Source: an uncultured Methanosarcinales archaeon (GTDB taxonomy: Archaea > Nanobdellota > Nanobdellia > Woesearchaeales > CAZOXR01). Taken from it: 48,761 nucleotides of DNA. Below the pieces are notes generated by a model. The model had not been told where the DNA came from, ran no database searches, and was given only the letters and a program-made list of their open reading frames with translations. The translations under genes were made by a program, and so were the position numbers. This document shows positions 44,825 to 48,761 of this stretch, in pieces. Numbering within the stretch: the first letter of the stretch is position 1; each line of letters opens with the position of its first letter. The stretch is taken from positions 1 to 48,761 of the forward strand of contig CAZMIO010000008.1 of NCBI GenBank assembly GCA_964566535.1, written 5' to 3'.

Positions 44825-45897
44825 TTTAAATCCTTAACAAACCTATCAAATATATTCTCAATATCCCACGGCCCAGGGTTAGCCTCTGGATGCATCTGTA
44901 TAGTTTGAATAGGCAATTTATCATGCTTTACCCCCTCAACAGACTCATCATTCAAATTCACATGCGAAACGAAAAGCCCAGTTCCATCCAAACTCTCAGC
45001 ATCAACTGCAAAACCATGATTTTGAGAAGTAATATACACCTTATTCTCAGCAATATCCTTAACAGGCTGATTAGTACCCCTATGTCCAAACTTTAACTTG
45101 TAAGTCTTACCACCCAAAGCCAAACTAACAATCTGATTCCCAAAACAAATTCCAGTAATAGGAAGTTCAGACTGCAATTCCCTAACACAATTAATAGCAT
45201 CAACAGCCTTCTCAGGATCCCCTGGACCGTTAGCAACAAACAACCCATTAGCCTTCAAATCAATAATCTCCTGAGCACTAACATTGTAAGGTAATTGCAC
45301 AACATTAACCTTCCTCTTCAAAAAATTCCTAATAATAGAATGCTTCACACCAGTATCAATCATAGCAATTGTTTTCTTACCGGAACAATCATGCCTAACT
45401 GCTTCCTTAACAGAAACTTTCTCTAAAAAATTAAACGAAGAATAATCCTCCATCTTCTTAACCTTATCAACTATTTCCTTAACATCAATCTCTCCCTTAG
45501 AAACAACTAACGCCCCATTCATAACTCCATGAACCCTTATCTTCTTAACCAACATACGAGTATCAATACCATAAATCCCAGGAATCTCATATTCAGAAAG
45601 AAATTCACCAAGCGACTTAACGGCACCTCTGTGCTGGTAAAAATCACTATAATCCCTCACAACAAAACCCTCAACCTGTACCTTGTCAGACTCAAACTTT
45701 CCCTCCCTAACCCCATAATTCCCAACTAAAGGATAAGTAGCAGTTAAAATCTGACCCTTATACGAAGGATCAGTCAAACTTTCCTCATAACCAACCATTG
45801 AAGTGTTAAACACAACCTCTCCAACCGTCTCTTTCTCAGCCCCAAAACCATGACCGCAAAGCACAGTCCCATCACTAAGAACTAAAACTGCTTTCAT
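44821..45897 (-). CDS. carA: Carbamoyl-phosphate synthase small subunit
   Basis: GEVVFNT, NGPGDP, GICFG, SQNHGF, HPEA. Confidence 0.98.
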   Translation of the reverse strand: MKAVLVLSDGTVLCGHGFGAEKETVGEVVFNTSMVGYEESLTDPSYKGQILTATYPLVGNYGVREGKFESDKVQVEGFVVRDYSDFYQHRGAVKSLGEFLSEYEIPGIYGIDTRMLVKKIRVHGVMNGALVVSKGEIDVKEIVDKVKKMEDYSSFNFLEKVSVKEAVRHDCSGKKTIAMIDTGVKHSIIRNFLKRKVNVVQLPYNVSAQEIIDLKANGLFVANGPGDPEKAVDAINCVRELQSELPITGICFGNQIVSLALGGKTYKLKFGHRGTNQPVKDIAENKVYITSQNHGFAVDAESLDGTGLFVSHVNLNDESVEGVKHDKLPIQTIQMHPEANPGPWDIENIFDRFVKDLK

Positions 45898-46021
45898 ACA
45901 AAATCACCACGAATAGATATACTTAGAGAAATAAAGACCTCATCATTTAATGAACAATTTTTCATTAAAAATATGAATGATGTTACTTGATATAAAAATA
46001 TTGTGGTTGTTTAGTTAGAAT

Positions 46022-46813
46022 TCAATATTAACACTTAATTTGGTTGATGAAATCACTCAAACTCGTGGTCAAAGTAATAAAGAATGTGTTGGCCAAGGAA
46101 TTGGTAACGTCGTTACTGGTTTTTTTGGAGGAATGGGTGGTTGTGCTATGATTGGTCAAAGTATGATCAATGTTGAAGCTGGTGGTAGAACCAGACTATC
46201 AAGTTTTAGTGCTTCAATATTCCTATTAATTTCAATCCTGTTTGCAGCACCACTAATAGAGATGATACCTGTAGCTGCATTAGTTGGGGTTATGTTTATG
46301 GTAGTTATAGGCACTTTTGAATGGTCCAGTCTTAGAGTTATTAATAAAATTCCAAGATCTGATGCTTTTGTATTAATGTTAGTTAGTATAGTAACAGTTC
46401 TTACTGACCTTGCAACTGCAGTAGTTATAGGTGTTATAATTAGTGCACTTGTTTTTGCATGGAAGAAAAGTGCAGTTATACAAGCTAAGGTTGTTTTGGG
46501 TAAAGGCAAGAAAACATATAAGTTAAGCGGACCGTTATTTTTTGGTTCAATTAGAACTTTTACAGATTTATTTGATATTAAAAAAGATCCAGAAAACGTA
46601 TATGTTGATTTTAAATATTCAAGAGTTCATGACCATAGCGCGCTCGAAGCAATTGATAATCTTACTGAAAAGTACGCAAAGGCTGGAAAAGAACTCCACG
46701 TCTTAAATGTAAGTCATGAATGCAAGGAACTATTAACAAAAGCCAAAGACATCACTGAAATTAACCTCATTGAAGATGAATGGATGCACATAGCTAGTAA
46801 TAAATTGGGTTAG
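46022..46813 (+). pseudogene. 5'-truncated SulP/STAS anion transporter
   Basis: Begins mid-protein (SILTLNLVDEIT..NKECVGQG..GGCAMIGQS); in-frame TAG at 46016-46018; STAS domain intact. Confidence 0.8.
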
Positions 46814-46825
46814 TATATTGCGCTT

Positions 46826-47803
46826 GTTATACGTTTTTTCTGCAAGAAAAAAAGCCGAAGGCGGAATGGAGTCCGGAAAAATTTCGTCCGAAAAGTTGAG
46901 AAAAAGACCGTCCCCTTAAAGCACGGAGTGCCTTAAAGGGAAAGAAGTTTAGGCGGGGCGTTATCAATATATTTTTAAATCAAATTTGATTTCTATTGTA
47001 ATTATGCATCCTAAATTAGCAGTAATATTAAATGGAGCTAAATCTATTGTTTTATTGAAATATCAAGTTCCAGGATATGAAGAGAGGGCAGAAGAATACA
47101 AACATAATGCATATATGTATGCACTTAGAAGAGCTCAAATTGATGAAAACCCATATCCTGATGATATTGGAACAGTTATTGACTCAGTAATTTTAAGGTT
47201 TTATCAGGGTAGGAGAGTTGAGATTATAAAAAATGAAGAAGGTGCACACTTTATTAGAACACCAAATGGTAATTACCATTATATTGATATGCAAATTTCC
47301 GAAGCACAATTAAGAAAGGGAAGACATTATGAAGCTTTATCAAAAAGTGCTGTTAGAAGATATTTGATTCAAATAAATCCATTATCTAAGGTAACGTCAG
47401 CAGTTGAAGATTTAGGGAATACTGTTAGGTGGGAATTAGATTCATTAAATTATATATTATATAGATTAAATGATACATTAGCGATTGGTTCAGAAGGTAC
47501 TAAAGGAAGTTTATCATCTCCTCAAGATCCCTTAGAATTAATATTAGGATTAGATACTCCAAAATCTTTGCCTGCTCCTTCAACAGATAAAACAGATTAA
47601 ATTACTAAAAGCCCCGCCCCTACAAGTTAAAGGTCTTTTTCTCAATTGTAACTAACATATGCGATTAACCGCAGTTCCGAAGCCCTCGAAAATTCCGACC
47701 CATATGGATGGAGGAATTTTCAGAGTTGGCTGAGGAATTGGGGAGAGGAACGAATTTTGCTTGGCAAAATAGCGGAGCGGTCGTTCCGAACCGGTTAATC
47801 GCT
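46826..47803 (+). mobile_element. Putative gene cassette unit 1
   Basis: GTTATAC start; conserved 29-mer (46868-46896); nested inverted repeats around the gene; attC-like hairpin at the 3' end. Confidence 0.55.
47004..47600 (+). CDS. Cassette cargo, hypothetical protein
   Basis: ATG 47004 lies ~23 nt after TTTTAAAT; no recognisable motif. Confidence 0.7.
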   Translation: MHPKLAVILNGAKSIVLLKYQVPGYEERAEEYKHNAYMYALRRAQIDENPYPDDIGTVIDSVILRFYQGRRVEIIKNEEGAHFIRTPNGNYHYIDMQISEAQLRKGRHYEALSKSAVRRYLIQINPLSKVTSAVEDLGNTVRWELDSLNYILYRLNDTLAIGSEGTKGSLSSPQDPLELILGLDTPKSLPAPSTDKTD

Positions 47804-47810
47804 GTTAAAT
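47650..47810 (+). repeat. attC-like recombination hairpin
   Basis: AACTAAC...GCGATTAACCG [branched stem-loops] CGGTTAATCGC-T-GTTAAAT (GTTRRRY). Confidence 0.6.
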
Positions 47811-48761
47811 ACCTTTTCCGTTACGAGCGACTGAAAGGAGCGGAGTTCGGAAAAGTTGCGTCCGCAAAGTAAAATTTCCATTTTCCAATAAATCTTGAGT
47901 AGCAGACAGTATTTTAAAAATCGGGGGCCTTCTATCAATGGAGCGAATAGCGACAATCAAGAATAAGAATCGGGGGGCTCTAGAGTTTATTAAAGTTAAT
48001 TTTATTCTCTATATAGTAGTTACAAAATAGAAAGATTTATAAAGGGTATTATATTCTATTAAAATATGAAACGAAGACGTTTTTTCCAAAGTATTCCTTA
48101 TATTGGAAGTGTAGCTTTAGCTGGAAATGCTTTAGCTCAAGATAGAGAAGTTGAACCTGGATCCAAAATAGTAACACCTACTTCTGAAAGATATCCCAAT
48201 TGGGATAGCGCGGGTAACTTTATTAGAAGAACATCGGATGAAATAATTGAAGGCCCGTTAGAATATATTGCGGATAGTGTAGGCAATCAAGATGGAACAG
48301 TTGAACCAATGGAAGCAGATTATATGAATATGAAGTTTGAGAGAGCTGATAGATTATATGTTTGTTCGATGAATGGTACTGAGTTTTATCTATATGGTAT
48401 GCGAGAAATATTTACATCACTTGATGATGCAATAAAATATTGGAATGATAACCCAAATAGAGGTCCTACAAGTGTGATCGAGTTTGATAAAACTGGGATT
48501 ACTCGAGCTTTTGCGGTCGGAGAAGTAGTTGTGGAACTTGATAATGTTTCTACTGCAGATTATAATGCTAAAATGCAAGAAAGGCGGGATAGAACCCGAC
48601 AAGAAAGATCAAATAGATAATCATTTCACTTAATTTTCTGTTTAGACAAAGACCCCCTTATATTTTTAGCCCCCGATTTATTTATAGAATGGAAATTTTA
48701 TTGTATTTAACATCGCGATTATCCGAAGTGCTTTAAGTCCGAAGGACATTAAAGCATTTGG
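47804..48761 (+). mobile_element. Putative gene cassette unit 2 (runs off window)
   Basis: Starts GTTAAATAC; complementary GTATTTAAC (RYYYAAC) at 48703-48711; same architecture as unit 1. Confidence 0.6.
48066..48620 (+). CDS. Cassette cargo, secreted protein with twin-arginine-like signal peptide
   Basis: MKRRRFF + h-region + ALA cleavage motif; own BRE-TATA at 48024-48043. Confidence 0.75.
   Translation: MKRRRFFQSIPYIGSVALAGNALAQDREVEPGSKIVTPTSERYPNWDSAGNFIRRTSDEIIEGPLEYIADSVGNQDGTVEPMEADYMNMKFERADRLYVCSMNGTEFYLYGMREIFTSLDDAIKYWNDNPNRGPTSVIEFDKTGITRAFAVGEVVVELDNVSTADYNAKMQERRDRTRQERSNR

Follow-up and report, generated by a model that had tools for sequence, protein, structure and literature searches.

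What kind of system is the row of single-gene units, separated by hairpins, that closes a contig of a small marine archaeon, and which recombinase serves it? The window analysed here is the whole stretch of 48,761 nt, which is the entire contig C8 of the organism's own genome (G000). The row is an array of swappable single-gene cassettes with folded recombination-type sites between them, in an integron-like layout at the contig end. The array pattern in the window is confirmed as real and lies well above chance. Most probably (roughly 0.7 for the whole explanation, including the Xer-type recombinase), the window holds the recombinase-distal section of an integron-like cassette array, belonging to an Xer-linked cassette system with a dedicated Xer-type tyrosine recombinase and folded sites.

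Layout of the array at the contig end

Positions 46825-48761 comprise two single-gene cassettes and three recombination-type sites, the third of which is cut by the contig end. The features of the array and its left flank are as follows.

45977-46813, +: SulP-family transporter gene remnant (C-terminal third and STAS domain; 5'-truncated; one in-frame TAG); left flank of the array, not a cassette part
46825-46833, +: site 0, 3' core only, TGTTA (46825-46829) and variable TACG; left array boundary
46834-46896, +: cassette 1 5' extension; hairpin 46834-46852, GCCGAAGGC 46854-46862, conserved 34-mer/29-mer 46863-46896
46896-46909, +: cassette 1 left closing repeat, TTGAGAAAAAGACC; 14 nt, 100% complementary to 47632-47645
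46910-47003, +: cassette 1 leader; small hairpin, GGCGGGGC 46952-46959 pairing with 47611-47618, TATA-like TTTTTAAAT 46972-46980 (read from the sequence)
47004-47600, +: cassette 1 gene; 198 aa, orphan
47601-47645, +: cassette 1 trailer; GCCCCGCC 47611-47618, right closing repeat 47632-47645
47646-47657, +: site 1 R'' box, TTG TAAC TAACA; part of cassette 1 (alignment A3)
47658-47802, +: site 1 bulge (TAT) and inner hairpin; Y-shaped, with L'' 47661-47671, two branches and L' 47792-47802 (folding and covariation)
47803-47812, +: site 1 R' box, TGTTA AATA C; part of cassette 2, complementary to 48703-48712
47813-47882, +: cassette 2 5' extension and left closing repeat; hairpin 47814-47855, 29-mer 47842-47870, repeat 47870-47882
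47883-48065, +: cassette 2 leader; two ATCGGGGG repeats (47920-47927, 47969-47976) pairing with the trailer CCCCCGAT, TATA-like TTTATAAA 48036-48043
48066-48620, +: cassette 2 gene; 184 aa, orphan; signal-like N-terminal start (KRRRFF)
48621-48700, +: cassette 2 trailer; GACCCCC 48651-48657, CCCCCGAT 48670-48677, right closing repeat 48688-48700
48701-48761, +: site 2, 5' part; R'' TTG TATT TAACA (48701-48712), bulge TC, L'' GCGATTATCCG (48715-48725), first part of the inner hairpin; truncated at the contig end

Upstream of the site 0 core there is no R''/L'' arm. The SulP remnant matches positions 243-379 of the 380 positions of Pfam Sulfate_transp, with one TAG within the match, and the ORF 46040-46813 inside it has Pfam and NCBIfam matches. 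A tie between this remnant and the array was considered and dropped, because the G000 assembly holds no N-terminal part of the gene elsewhere and an R''-like motif at 46018-46040 pairs with nothing.

A first-pass annotation of this DNA had described a conserved 29-mer in both units (46868-46896 versus 47842-47870); the copies are indeed identical at 25 of 29 positions, and a repeat search lengthens the match to 34 nt at 82%. Site halves of the form TTGTA..TAACAT.GCGATTA.CCG.AGT start where it had placed them, at 47646 and 48701, and the branched hairpin that it had proposed between the genes is a Y-shaped structure (47653-47807) with an 11-bp perfect stem, GCGATTAACCG/CGGTTAATCGC. The complementarity that it had noted between the start of unit 2 and that unit's own 3' site is recovered over 13 nt at 92% (47800-47812 versus 48703-48715). 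The ends of unit 1 had been said to match each other poorly, which is true of the R boxes (TACG versus TAAC); yet the closing repeat of unit 1 is perfect. The closing repeats themselves, two perfect inverted repeats that bracket each gene and abut conserved site parts, were absent from the earlier annotation (46896-46909/47632-47645, 14 nt; 47870-47882/48688-48700, 13 nt).

Neither cassette protein belongs to a Pfam or NCBIfam family. That of cassette 1 has no relative in 400 same-order genomes; that of cassette 2 has one weak relative among these (37% identity), and identical copies of its gene are present on two metagenome contigs. Across the system, the cassette genes are orphan accessory, toxin-antitoxin or surface-protein genes. 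TATA-like boxes stand 24-32 nt upstream of both cassette ATGs in the window, and expression of the cassette genes seems to start at promoters of their own. One gene has opposite orientations relative to its sites in two genomes (L022 versus L035).

Folding of the sites and complementarity of the cassette ends

As DNA, positions 47628-47886 (259 nt) fold at -49.3 kcal/mol on the top strand (z -4.9) and at -48.5 kcal/mol on the bottom strand (z -6.0), and none of 200 shuffles folds equally well. The top (sense) strand folds better in 84 of 91 sites, by a mean of 2.0 kcal/mol. In the covariation analysis (94 distinct rows), 93.0% of the cells are paired versus 72.4% after shuffling, slid controls give 34-48%, and 46 of the 52 pairs carry double changes; since alignment A3 was fitted to covariance model R1, which was built from three sequences, the pairing and G-T counts are inflated. 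The partial site 2 matches R1 with 22.7 bits, its 3' end being cut.

The inverse cores of attC sites follow the consensus RYYYAAC (R'') and GTTRRRY (R'). Cores of this kind are found here, with TAAC at 92-100% and GTTA at 93-98% in 90 aligned sites. A canonical attC consists of an R box, an unpaired central spacer, an L box with extrahelical bases and a variable tip, and measures about 57-141 nt. Compared with this geometry, the sites depart from the attC fold in the way that the first-pass annotation had called non-canonical: a bulge of 2-3 nt, confined to one arm and to the same arm in all sites, takes the place of the central spacer, the L stem runs over at least 10 bp without an extrahelical base, the tip is branched and conserved in sequence, and the sites measure 97-228 nt. 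Only about 4 nt lie between the arms of the 3' core. Together, R stem, bulge and L stem make up an attC-like site, a portable hairpin between cassettes. In a search of 45900-48761 against Rfam, only four matches were returned, all at chance level (E 4.5-8.8) and far below gathering scores.

The cassettes share one plan, TGTTA-NNNN, leader, gene with its own TATA box, trailer and NNNN-TAACA, and their two ends are mutually complementary. In integrons, crossover takes place inside the site, which leaves the 5' end of a cassette complementary to its own 3' site. Here, the variable tetranucleotide next to TGTTA is complementary to its counterpart next to TAACA at the other end of the cassette; thus, following the same logic, the sites of the array are hybrids of neighbouring cassettes. 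Perfect complementarity of the tetranucleotides is seen within 30 of 49 cassette intervals; within one site it is found in 8 of 88 cases, and among random pairs in 242 of 5000. Closing repeats of at least 10 nt occur in 28 of 43 inter-site intervals versus 30 of 1806 non-cognate pairings. As the relatives share descent, counts across genomes, here and below, are not independent. The closing stems are cassette-specific and are kept over 0.5-7 kb. Parts of the window recur in relatives: the 5'-extension module of cassette 1 also follows 9 of 88 sites, and leaders homologous to that of cassette 2 occur in G066, G060 and G089.

Further units, for which a scan of the genome and its relatives had been suggested, are present in relatives and on contig C19 of the same genome, where two more full sites and their cassettes of 4.2 kb and 4.7 kb follow the same logic. 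In G000, R1 finds no sites beyond the three from which it was built, and a scan for the pattern TAACA..stem..TGTT was unspecific (17 matches versus 2-11 in shuffles).

The unit boundary had originally been placed at the GTT side. That side is not the only boundary: metagenome contig L089 equals window positions 47608-48712 at 100% and breaks right after TAACA, continuing with ACTA instead of TCGC, a divergence of 4 nt only, at the contig end. Where near-identical hairpins occur in different genomes, both TAACA and TGTTA mark their limits; among 21 near-identical hairpin pairs, none shares the upstream flank and two share the downstream flank. The break in L089 and the recombinase-proximal terminal sites suggest that the TAACA side is an exchange point, perhaps the main one. 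In four metagenome runs, other contigs carry an ordinary L' arm (...AATCTCTAAATC) before 46823, as loose ends. The search for circular junctions that had been proposed gave neither a circular junction nor a clean excision joint in the contigs of four runs, in which uncovered parts are not evidence. Three apparent skips were rejected as excision joints, their sides being only 20-26 nt long, and 'joints' from 47810 to 46879 were rejected as other site copies with a different hairpin.

Xer-like genes beside the arrays of relatives

R1 has matches in 52 of 151 same-order genomes, a count that includes G000, and these frequently form arrays; the site family is widespread in this order of archaea. 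In 14 genomes, 12 of which belong to one searched set of 30, a Xer-like gene in the same orientation follows shortly after the end of the array; all 14 linked arrays have the recombinase gene on their downstream side and in the orientation of the cassette genes. In integrons, by contrast, intI and attI lie upstream of the array, and a common promoter serves cassettes without promoters. Of the 37 Xer-like genes in our tree, another 12 have their 5' end at most 620 nt from a contig edge. The array-linked genes form three supported clades (100/100, 98/96 and 98/90) apart from the grade of dif-linked housekeeping xerA, and the Xer-like gene of G000 groups with the array-adjacent L042 and L040. At least seven genomes that carry a housekeeping-type gene also have a separate Xer paralogue.

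As had been noted, the window encodes no integrase; the only two PF00589 matches in the genome are on C10 and C15. The proposed search for a tyrosine recombinase gene led to C10, which terminates exactly in the mini-site TAACA/ACT-ATTAGAC-GCA-GTCTAAT-TGTT, 170 nt upstream of the only XerA-like gene of the genome. The C10 protein scores 228.4 on the XerA model NF040815 (cut-off 220) and 163.9 on the IntI model TIGR02249 (cut-off 265). On the XerA model, the proteins of ten array-linked relatives reach 185.5-236.6 bits, four of them attaining the cut-off and six staying below it, and three dif-linked proteins reach 256-261 bits. A hallmark of IntI is an additional, IntI-specific domain near patch III. 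This insert is absent from all 14 Xer-like proteins scanned; the 13 proteins from relatives all fall below the IntI cut-off and align to the model in two stretches, leaving out about positions 186-234. From these protein features we infer that the recombinase is probably Xer-type rather than IntI. Since the array (C8), C19 and the Xer gene (C10) are on three contigs without overlap, the 3' end of C8 overlapping no other contig of the assembly, the link between array and Xer gene in G000 is drawn from the relatives. With an assembly completeness of 91%, an IntI or a second Xer may have escaped assembly.

No convincing dif palindrome was found in G000, where one weak candidate lies on C1. The L'' consensus of the sites, ATT-AAgCGAAGTT, agrees at 10 of 13 positions with the right arm of AACTTCGTATAA-TATATC-TTATACGAAGTT, a palindrome upstream of a housekeeping xerA in G060. 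In the accessible part of the source, archaeal XerA is described with a single dif site of two 11-bp arms and a 6-bp spacer (PMC2958812).

Known systems, rival readings and meaning

Integrons and CALINs, the archaeal ones of Ghaly et al. (2022; PMC9668308) included, resemble the array in their tandem, mostly single-gene, co-oriented cassettes and in their orphan, toxin-antitoxin and secreted or membrane genes. Both have imperfect-palindrome sites with inverse cores (...TAAC / GTTA...), hybrid sites, complementary cassette ends and sites that are alike within a lineage; integrons also share a tyrosine recombinase gene and a simple primary site at one array end. A CALIN is an attC cluster without integrase in which at least two sites lie less than 4 kb apart (PMC9668308); the sites of the window are 1055 nt apart (47646 and 48701). 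The array differs from integrons in its XerA-like recombinase without the IntI-specific insert and the downstream, co-oriented position of its gene, in cassettes with their own TATA boxes, in the site geometry given above, in a palindrome that runs past the R box as a cassette-specific closing stem, in the sense strand of the genes being the better-folding strand, and in mosaic boundaries on both sides of the hairpin. The suggestion of a CALIN-like or new cassette-shuffling system gains support from the hybrid-site signature in 43-49 cassettes, the lack of any IntI among the genomes searched and the adjoining Xer-like genes.

With Xer/dif dimer resolution (Cortez et al., 2010; PMC2958812, seen in part) the array shares a protein that passes the NCBIfam XerA equivalog model, site arms that resemble dif-like palindromes upstream of relatives' housekeeping xerA, and the 11-6/7-11 spacing of the 5' half-site. 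However, the array-linked proteins form separate clades with lower XerA scores (185-237 versus 256-261 bits), many tandem sites have cargo between them, and the sites are folded and branched. Recombinase-less DNA units that are inserted (in the array, putatively) by Xer-type enzymes are a trait shared with IMEX of the CTXphi type, in which a single strand exchange with single-stranded phage DNA is completed by replication (PMC3442271, in part), and with Acinetobacter modules, in which genes are bracketed by Xer sites (PMC7399989, in part). According to the same portions of these sources, such elements rely on the housekeeping XerCD of the host, acting at or near dif, whereas the array has a separate adjoining Xer paralogue and integron-style cassettes in long arrays. 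Clusters of attC that lack an IntI are already known from archaea (PMC9668308). In the literature searched, we found no archaeal report of Xer-exploiting elements like the IMEX or Acinetobacter modules and no paper on Xer-linked cassette arrays in archaea, and the accessible part of a review of archaeal tyrosine recombinases makes no mention of DPANN, Woesearchaeota or cassettes.

In the reading that we prefer, the recombinase gene would close the array downstream, encoded on its strand and preceded by a short terminal half-site. With a site folded from the sense (top) strand, the putative recombinase would bind its R and L arms and would exchange strands at the invariant pentamers. A circular cassette would be inserted by exchange at the TAACA adjoining the terminal site, and exchange between two array sites would excise one cassette. 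The cassette-specific closing stems would meet only in the circle, where they may aid the folding or extrusion of the site.

The same Xer-type recombinase and cassettes could also work with double-stranded dif-like cores (R''-spacer-L'' and an inverted copy) and no folded strand, a reaction resembling the proposal for Xer-site-flanked modules on Acinetobacter plasmids (PMC7399989, in part). We regard this as possible and rather unlikely: the compensatory changes fall in branch helices and not in the expected binding arms, with helices 4, 5 and 8-11 all showing double changes, even though the R''-6/7 nt-L'' arrangement equals the 11-6-11 layout of dif and the two arms and spacer reported for archaeal dif (PMC2958812, in part). 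The maintenance of closing stems over kilobases, a bulge that always sits in the same arm, the better folding of one strand and the short distance between the arms of the 3' core likewise speak against a duplex reaction; the L'' match to the G060 palindrome arm, the inverted cores that flank cassettes and the gene inverted between L022 and L035 speak for it. A further reading takes the hairpins for passive intergenic palindromes (terminators, REP- or MITE-like repeats) or structured read-through RNA, not recombination sites. Their placement after genes and before T-rich runs would suit this reading, the better-folding sense strand would also fit an RNA structure, and in four marine metagenomes the conserved site parts reach 41-186x depth versus 2-12x for genes, 5-25 times deeper than flanking genes, as for a dispersed repeat. 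We consider it highly improbable, since it leaves unexplained why tetranucleotides and closing repeats correspond between the two ends of a cassette instead of within a site, why junctions vary at 100% identity, and why the arrays keep a constant position and orientation beside Xer-like genes; no Rfam family matches either.

The layout and the TAAC/GTTA cores fit attC, and the array might be the remnant of an ordinary archaeal integron, a CALIN moved by a classical IntI encoded elsewhere, unassembled or supplied by other cells. The available sections of PMC9668308 list, among the matches given, attC clusters with no IntI in at least six Woesearchaeales MAGs and in other Nanoarchaeota MAGs, and state that bacterial IntI1 recombines archaeal attCs; the incompleteness of the G000 assembly leaves room for such a gene. 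We nevertheless hold this origin to be improbable. None of the 151 same-order genomes passes the IntI model, in a search without a positive control, as 0 of 14 control genomes pass either. In addition, the Xer-like proteins lack the IntI insert, arrays in 14 genomes end beside Xer-like genes of distinct clades, and the R-L spacing is a small bulge without unpaired central spacer in sites of up to 228 nt.

Returning to the Xer-linked cassette system with folded sites, it is tempting to speculate that it is a gene-capture system parallel to integrons, or near their ancestral state, built on plain Xer-type recombinases, a proposal for which we see even odds. It would combine dif-mimicking folded sites, cassettes self-closed by long stems, a hairpin acting as a portable module of its own, flanked on either side by an exchange point, and cassette ends reused for unrelated cargo; the IntI-less attC clusters of DPANN archaea would belong here and not to integrons proper. 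The integrases of integrons are believed to have descended from recombinases of the Xer kind (PMC4792948, in part). If the proposal is true, a cassette system on an unmodified Xer fold would mean that gene capture can do without the IntI insert, and would offer a testable intermediate for the origin of integrons. Many archaeal "integrase-less integrons" would then be reassigned. That different cargo shares one pair of cassette ends also touches on how cassettes are made. The site family is present in about one third of the same-order genomes searched, and the system would be a major route of accessory-gene flux in these tiny, host-dependent archaea.

Anatomy of the cassette array

The window is contig C8 in full, part of a genome of 1.45 Mb (37 contigs, 91% complete), and in a metagenome run search this stretch was found in 20 marine/seawater runs from 14 studies. 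The array lies at its end. To the left of the array lie carA and a sulP remnant (45977-46813), which is 5'-truncated and decayed with one in-frame TAG (Pfam/NCBIfam family searches). The N-terminal half of a SulP-family gene is absent from the whole assembly, thus the left border of the array is decayed DNA. Two like-organised units follow. Each starts with TGTTA and four variable bases, followed by a small hairpin, a conserved 29/34-mer and a cassette-specific repeat; then come a leader, an orphan gene, a trailer, the complement of the cassette-specific repeat and TTG-NNNN-TAACA. All window elements listed in the first-pass annotation were recovered, including the two units of the same layout, the conserved 29-mer (25/29 identical; 28/34 for the 34-mer) and the TATA-like boxes of the orphan genes (24-32 nt upstream of ATG in both leaders). 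The perfect inverted repeats bracketing each gene were absent from that annotation.

Features of the array (forward-strand coordinates of the window unless a locus is named)
46896-46909 / 47632-47645: perfect 14-nt inverted repeat bracketing cassette 1
47870-47882 / 48688-48700: perfect 13-nt inverted repeat bracketing cassette 2
46825-46975, 47803-47950: shared cassette ends; also in loci L048 (4738-4890, 6070-6220), L044 (5734-5885) and L055 (reverse strand)
46854-46862, 47676-47684, 48736-48746: C-GAAG-G/C-GGAG-G hairpin tips, also in many leaders of relatives

The cassette genes (198 aa and 184 aa) match no Pfam or NCBIfam family. By eye, the start of the cassette 2 protein (48066-48140; MKRRRFFQS..ALAQ) looks like a twin-arginine export signal. 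The branched hairpin noted between the genes proved to be Y-shaped, with a perfect closing stem of 11 bp. As DNA, the surrounding 259 nt fold with -49.3 kcal/mol on the top strand (z -4.9) and -48.5 kcal/mol on the bottom strand (z -6.0), and none of 200 shuffles folded as well. The contig ends 47 nt inside the next hairpin. The closing repeats differ in sequence from cassette 1 to cassette 2, and between the two copies of each lie further complementary GC-rich words (GGCGGGGC/GCCCCGCC in cassette 1, ATCGGGGG (twice)/CCCCCGAT in cassette 2). Because the repeats adjoin the conserved halves of the sites, a circular cassette would fold into a single long hairpin with these repeats as its closing stem. 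Many small hairpins carry C-GAAG-G or C-GGAG-G tips (GCCGAAGGC, GTCCGAAGGAC, GTGCGAAGCAC), noted without a control count. DNA mini-hairpins of the sequence d(GCGAAGC) are exceptionally stable; if that is correct, the C-GAAG-G tips would fit folding of the DNA.

The site family and evidence for cassette mobility

Contig C19 of the same genome has two further full sites. The 4.2-kb cassette between them, closed by TTCGAAAACCCGCC and its complement, carries two large orphan genes as well as a PIN_2 toxin gene with its small upstream partner (locus L001 on C19, 598-1229). The next cassette (4.7 kb, multi-gene) is closed by TTTTTTATTTGCC/GGCAAATAAAAAA and includes three consecutive paralogous zinc-ribbon membrane proteins and a small winged-helix gene (L001, 6176-8624). 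A covariance model (R1; 191 positions, 52 pairs), an approach proposed in the first-pass annotation, was built from the three full sites. It matched 52 of 151 same-order genomes (own genome included, E <= 0.01) and 44 of the 115 high-quality ones, often in same-strand rows, such as ten matches in 9.4 kb in G073. G132 and G112, both unpublished, are counted in the 151-genome tallies for R1 and IntI; their sequences enter no further claim. The site consensus is TTG-NNNN-TAACA-T(C)-GGAATT-TAACGAAGTT ... CCGTTAAATTCC-TGTTA-NNNN-C. Across an alignment of 94 distinct rows, the paired fraction of cells was 93.0%, versus 72.4% in shuffles and 34-48% with slid partners, and both-side changes were seen in 46 of 52 pairs, figures that are inflated as the alignment was fitted to R1.

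Comparison of the first 140 nt after one site with the last 30 nt before the next revealed a perfect inverted repeat of at least 10 nt across the cassette in 28 of 43 intervals, versus 30 of 1806 non-cognate pairings; the right copy mostly adjoins the next site. In 30 of 49 intervals the NNNN after TGTTA was perfectly complementary to the NNNN before TAACA of the same cassette, versus 8/88 within one site and 242/5000 random pairs. Since these bases match across the cassette and rarely within a site, the array sites are hybrids of two neighbours, as in integrons.

Among 400 same-order genomes gene 1 has no relative and gene 2 a single one (37% identity). The first 150 nt of cassette 1 are common to two G073 cassettes (103/129 and 101/135 identical), and those of cassette 2 to a 6.8-kb G066 cassette (118/137) and a 6.1-kb G089 cassette (115/137); between these and the window cassettes no cargo similarity was found. 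These shared ends (extension, 29-mer, closing repeat, leader, trailer) enclose cargo that is unrelated and 0.5 to 6.8 kb long. Judged by sequence, the cassette ends behave as if they were a reusable vehicle.

Four marine metagenome runs, each of a different study, had a depth of 41-186 in the conserved site parts versus 2-12 in the genes, and contigs break at the sites with loose ends that show different neighbours. The metagenome contig L089 equals window 47608-48712 (100% over 1105 nt) and continues directly after TAACA with ACTA, where the window has TCGC. In all four runs an ordinary L' arm (a 3' arm of a site) stands before 46823 on another contig, where the window has the sulP end. A further metagenome contig (L090) equals window 46387-48588 at 100%, but at 46387 it is joined to the reverse complement of carA 45646-45737 (L090:1-92); the joint, at which 6 nt are common to both sides, immediately precedes TAACA at 46392. 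Either another population is rearranged here, or this joint is a chimera of the assembly. One cassette gene occurs in two genomes (L022:435-1402 and L035:379-1344; 71% over 971 nt), and relative to its flanking sites it points one way in the first and the other way in the second, so that cassettes may also invert.

Xer-like recombinases beside the arrays

The search for a tyrosine recombinase, also suggested in the first pass, yielded two genes in the source genome. The one on contig C10 scores over the XerA equivalog cut-off and under the cut-offs of the IntI models. The end of C10, 170 nt upstream of this gene, falls exactly in a miniature site of 29 nt, TAACA-ACT-ATTAGAC-GCA-GTCTAAT-TGTT, in which TAACA continues with the same ACTA as in L089. 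Contig-end overlaps joining C8, C19 and C10 were not found. In the assembly (91% complete), neither a xerA of housekeeping type nor a dif palindrome like those of the relatives is seen, the only dif candidate being a weak one (C1:267112-267137). Possibly the array-type Xer fulfils both functions; alternatively, the housekeeping locus may be missing from the assembly.

Among 30 site-bearing relatives (PF00589 search), 12 have an R1 site at most 10 kb upstream of a same-strand Xer-like gene, and other loci added two cases; the gene stands at the downstream end of the array in 14 of 14. As a rough expectation, not a computed one, chance adjacency would give less than one case in 30 genomes. In G066 the gap between site and gene is one 6.8-kb cassette, whose closing repeat and R'' (a 5' arm) are identical over 25 nt to window cassette 2 and adjoin the terminal hairpin. 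The tree contains 37 Xer-like genes; for 12 of these, the 5' end is at most 620 nt from a contig edge, as unassembled arrays would cause. In L074 (G028:C3, 340-950) a site and the following 169 nt are tandemly duplicated (96% over 313 nt), and the 'cassette' nearest the Xer-like gene is empty, with about 230 nt and no gene.

Three kinds of element occur upstream of these genes: dif-like palindromes (in G060 AACTTCGTATAA-TATATC-TTATACGAAGTT), terminal mini-sites (TAACA-NN-TATTAAGCG...CGCTTAATA) and a CACTGGACACTGGACA motif about 25 nt before the TATA box, conserved for the genes of two clades (L084, L079, L042, L040, L046, L075, L052, L045). The gene on C10 (L084) has TGTCCAGTGG and CCACTGGACA in inverted orientation. 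This motif might act as an operator or else belong to the primary site as an accessory binding site. In a maximum-likelihood tree, dif-linked genes form a basal grade and array-linked ones three supported clades (100/100, 98/96, 98/90); the C10 gene clusters with two array-adjacent genes. At least seven genomes have one gene of each type. Among scanned proteins, array-linked ones score 185-237 bits with the XerA model and dif-linked ones 256-261. All of them match the IntI model in two stretches, skip approximately 186-234 and stay below the cut-off, and none of the 151 same-order genomes exceeded it in a search run without a positive control.

Proposed exchange reaction and relation to known systems

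The Xer-like protein probably binds the R and L arms of the folded site, with strand exchange at the invariant pentamers. A circle would then be inserted at the terminal half-site beside the recombinase gene, and the closing stems would aid folding of the circle's site. We favour folding over a purely duplex reaction because of compensatory changes in the branch helices, because cassette-specific stems are kept over 0.5-7 kb and because the bulge is always on the same arm and the top (sense) strand folds better (84 of 91 sites, mean 2.0 kcal/mol). As the exchange point, TAACA is favoured by L089, by the conserved terminal hairpins and by homology that runs unbroken from hairpin into leader (G066, G060, G089). 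The loose ends before 46823 show that TGTTA is also a boundary, as do hairpins about 99% identical across genomes of different families, which are bounded exactly by TAACA and TGTTA, and the near absence of shared flanks (near-identical pairs share the upstream flank in 0/21 and the downstream flank in 2/21). Exchange may use both pentamers; alternatively, a different process may swap or add hairpins.

With the recombinase gene as reference, the layout corresponds to that of an integron: the gene is directed away from the array and has a simple site next to it. As in integrons, each cassette has its hairpin after it, exchange would take place at the hairpin's far side, and what folds is, relative to the recombinase gene, the 'bottom' strand. 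Unlike in integrons, the cassette genes point towards the recombinase and have their own promoters. In its 5' half (R'', 6-7 nt, L''), the site follows the 11-6-11 arrangement given for archaeal dif (PMC2958812), and L'' agrees with a dif-like arm from a relative at 10 of 13 positions; this likeness is a lead. Across 75 archaeal MAGs, integrons and integrase-less attC clusters were reported together with a total of six IntIs, and among the matches listed in data S1, Woesearchaeales, Pacearchaeales and a seawater 'Woesearchaeota' order have no IntI (Ghaly et al., 2022; PMC9668308). Some of these integrase-less clusters may belong to the present site family. Xer-dependent mobile units include CTXphi, in which single-stranded DNA undergoes a single strand exchange (PMC3442271), and Acinetobacter modules flanked by Xer sites (PMC7399989). 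No account of archaeal cassette arrays linked to Xer turned up in the literature searched. The first-pass annotation had proposed a CALIN-like or new cassette-shuffling system, and the hybrid sites, the junction polymorphisms and the linkage to Xer-like genes in relatives, observed together with the anatomy, bear this out. In summary, it is well supported that the window contains a real integron-like cassette array of an Xer-linked family.
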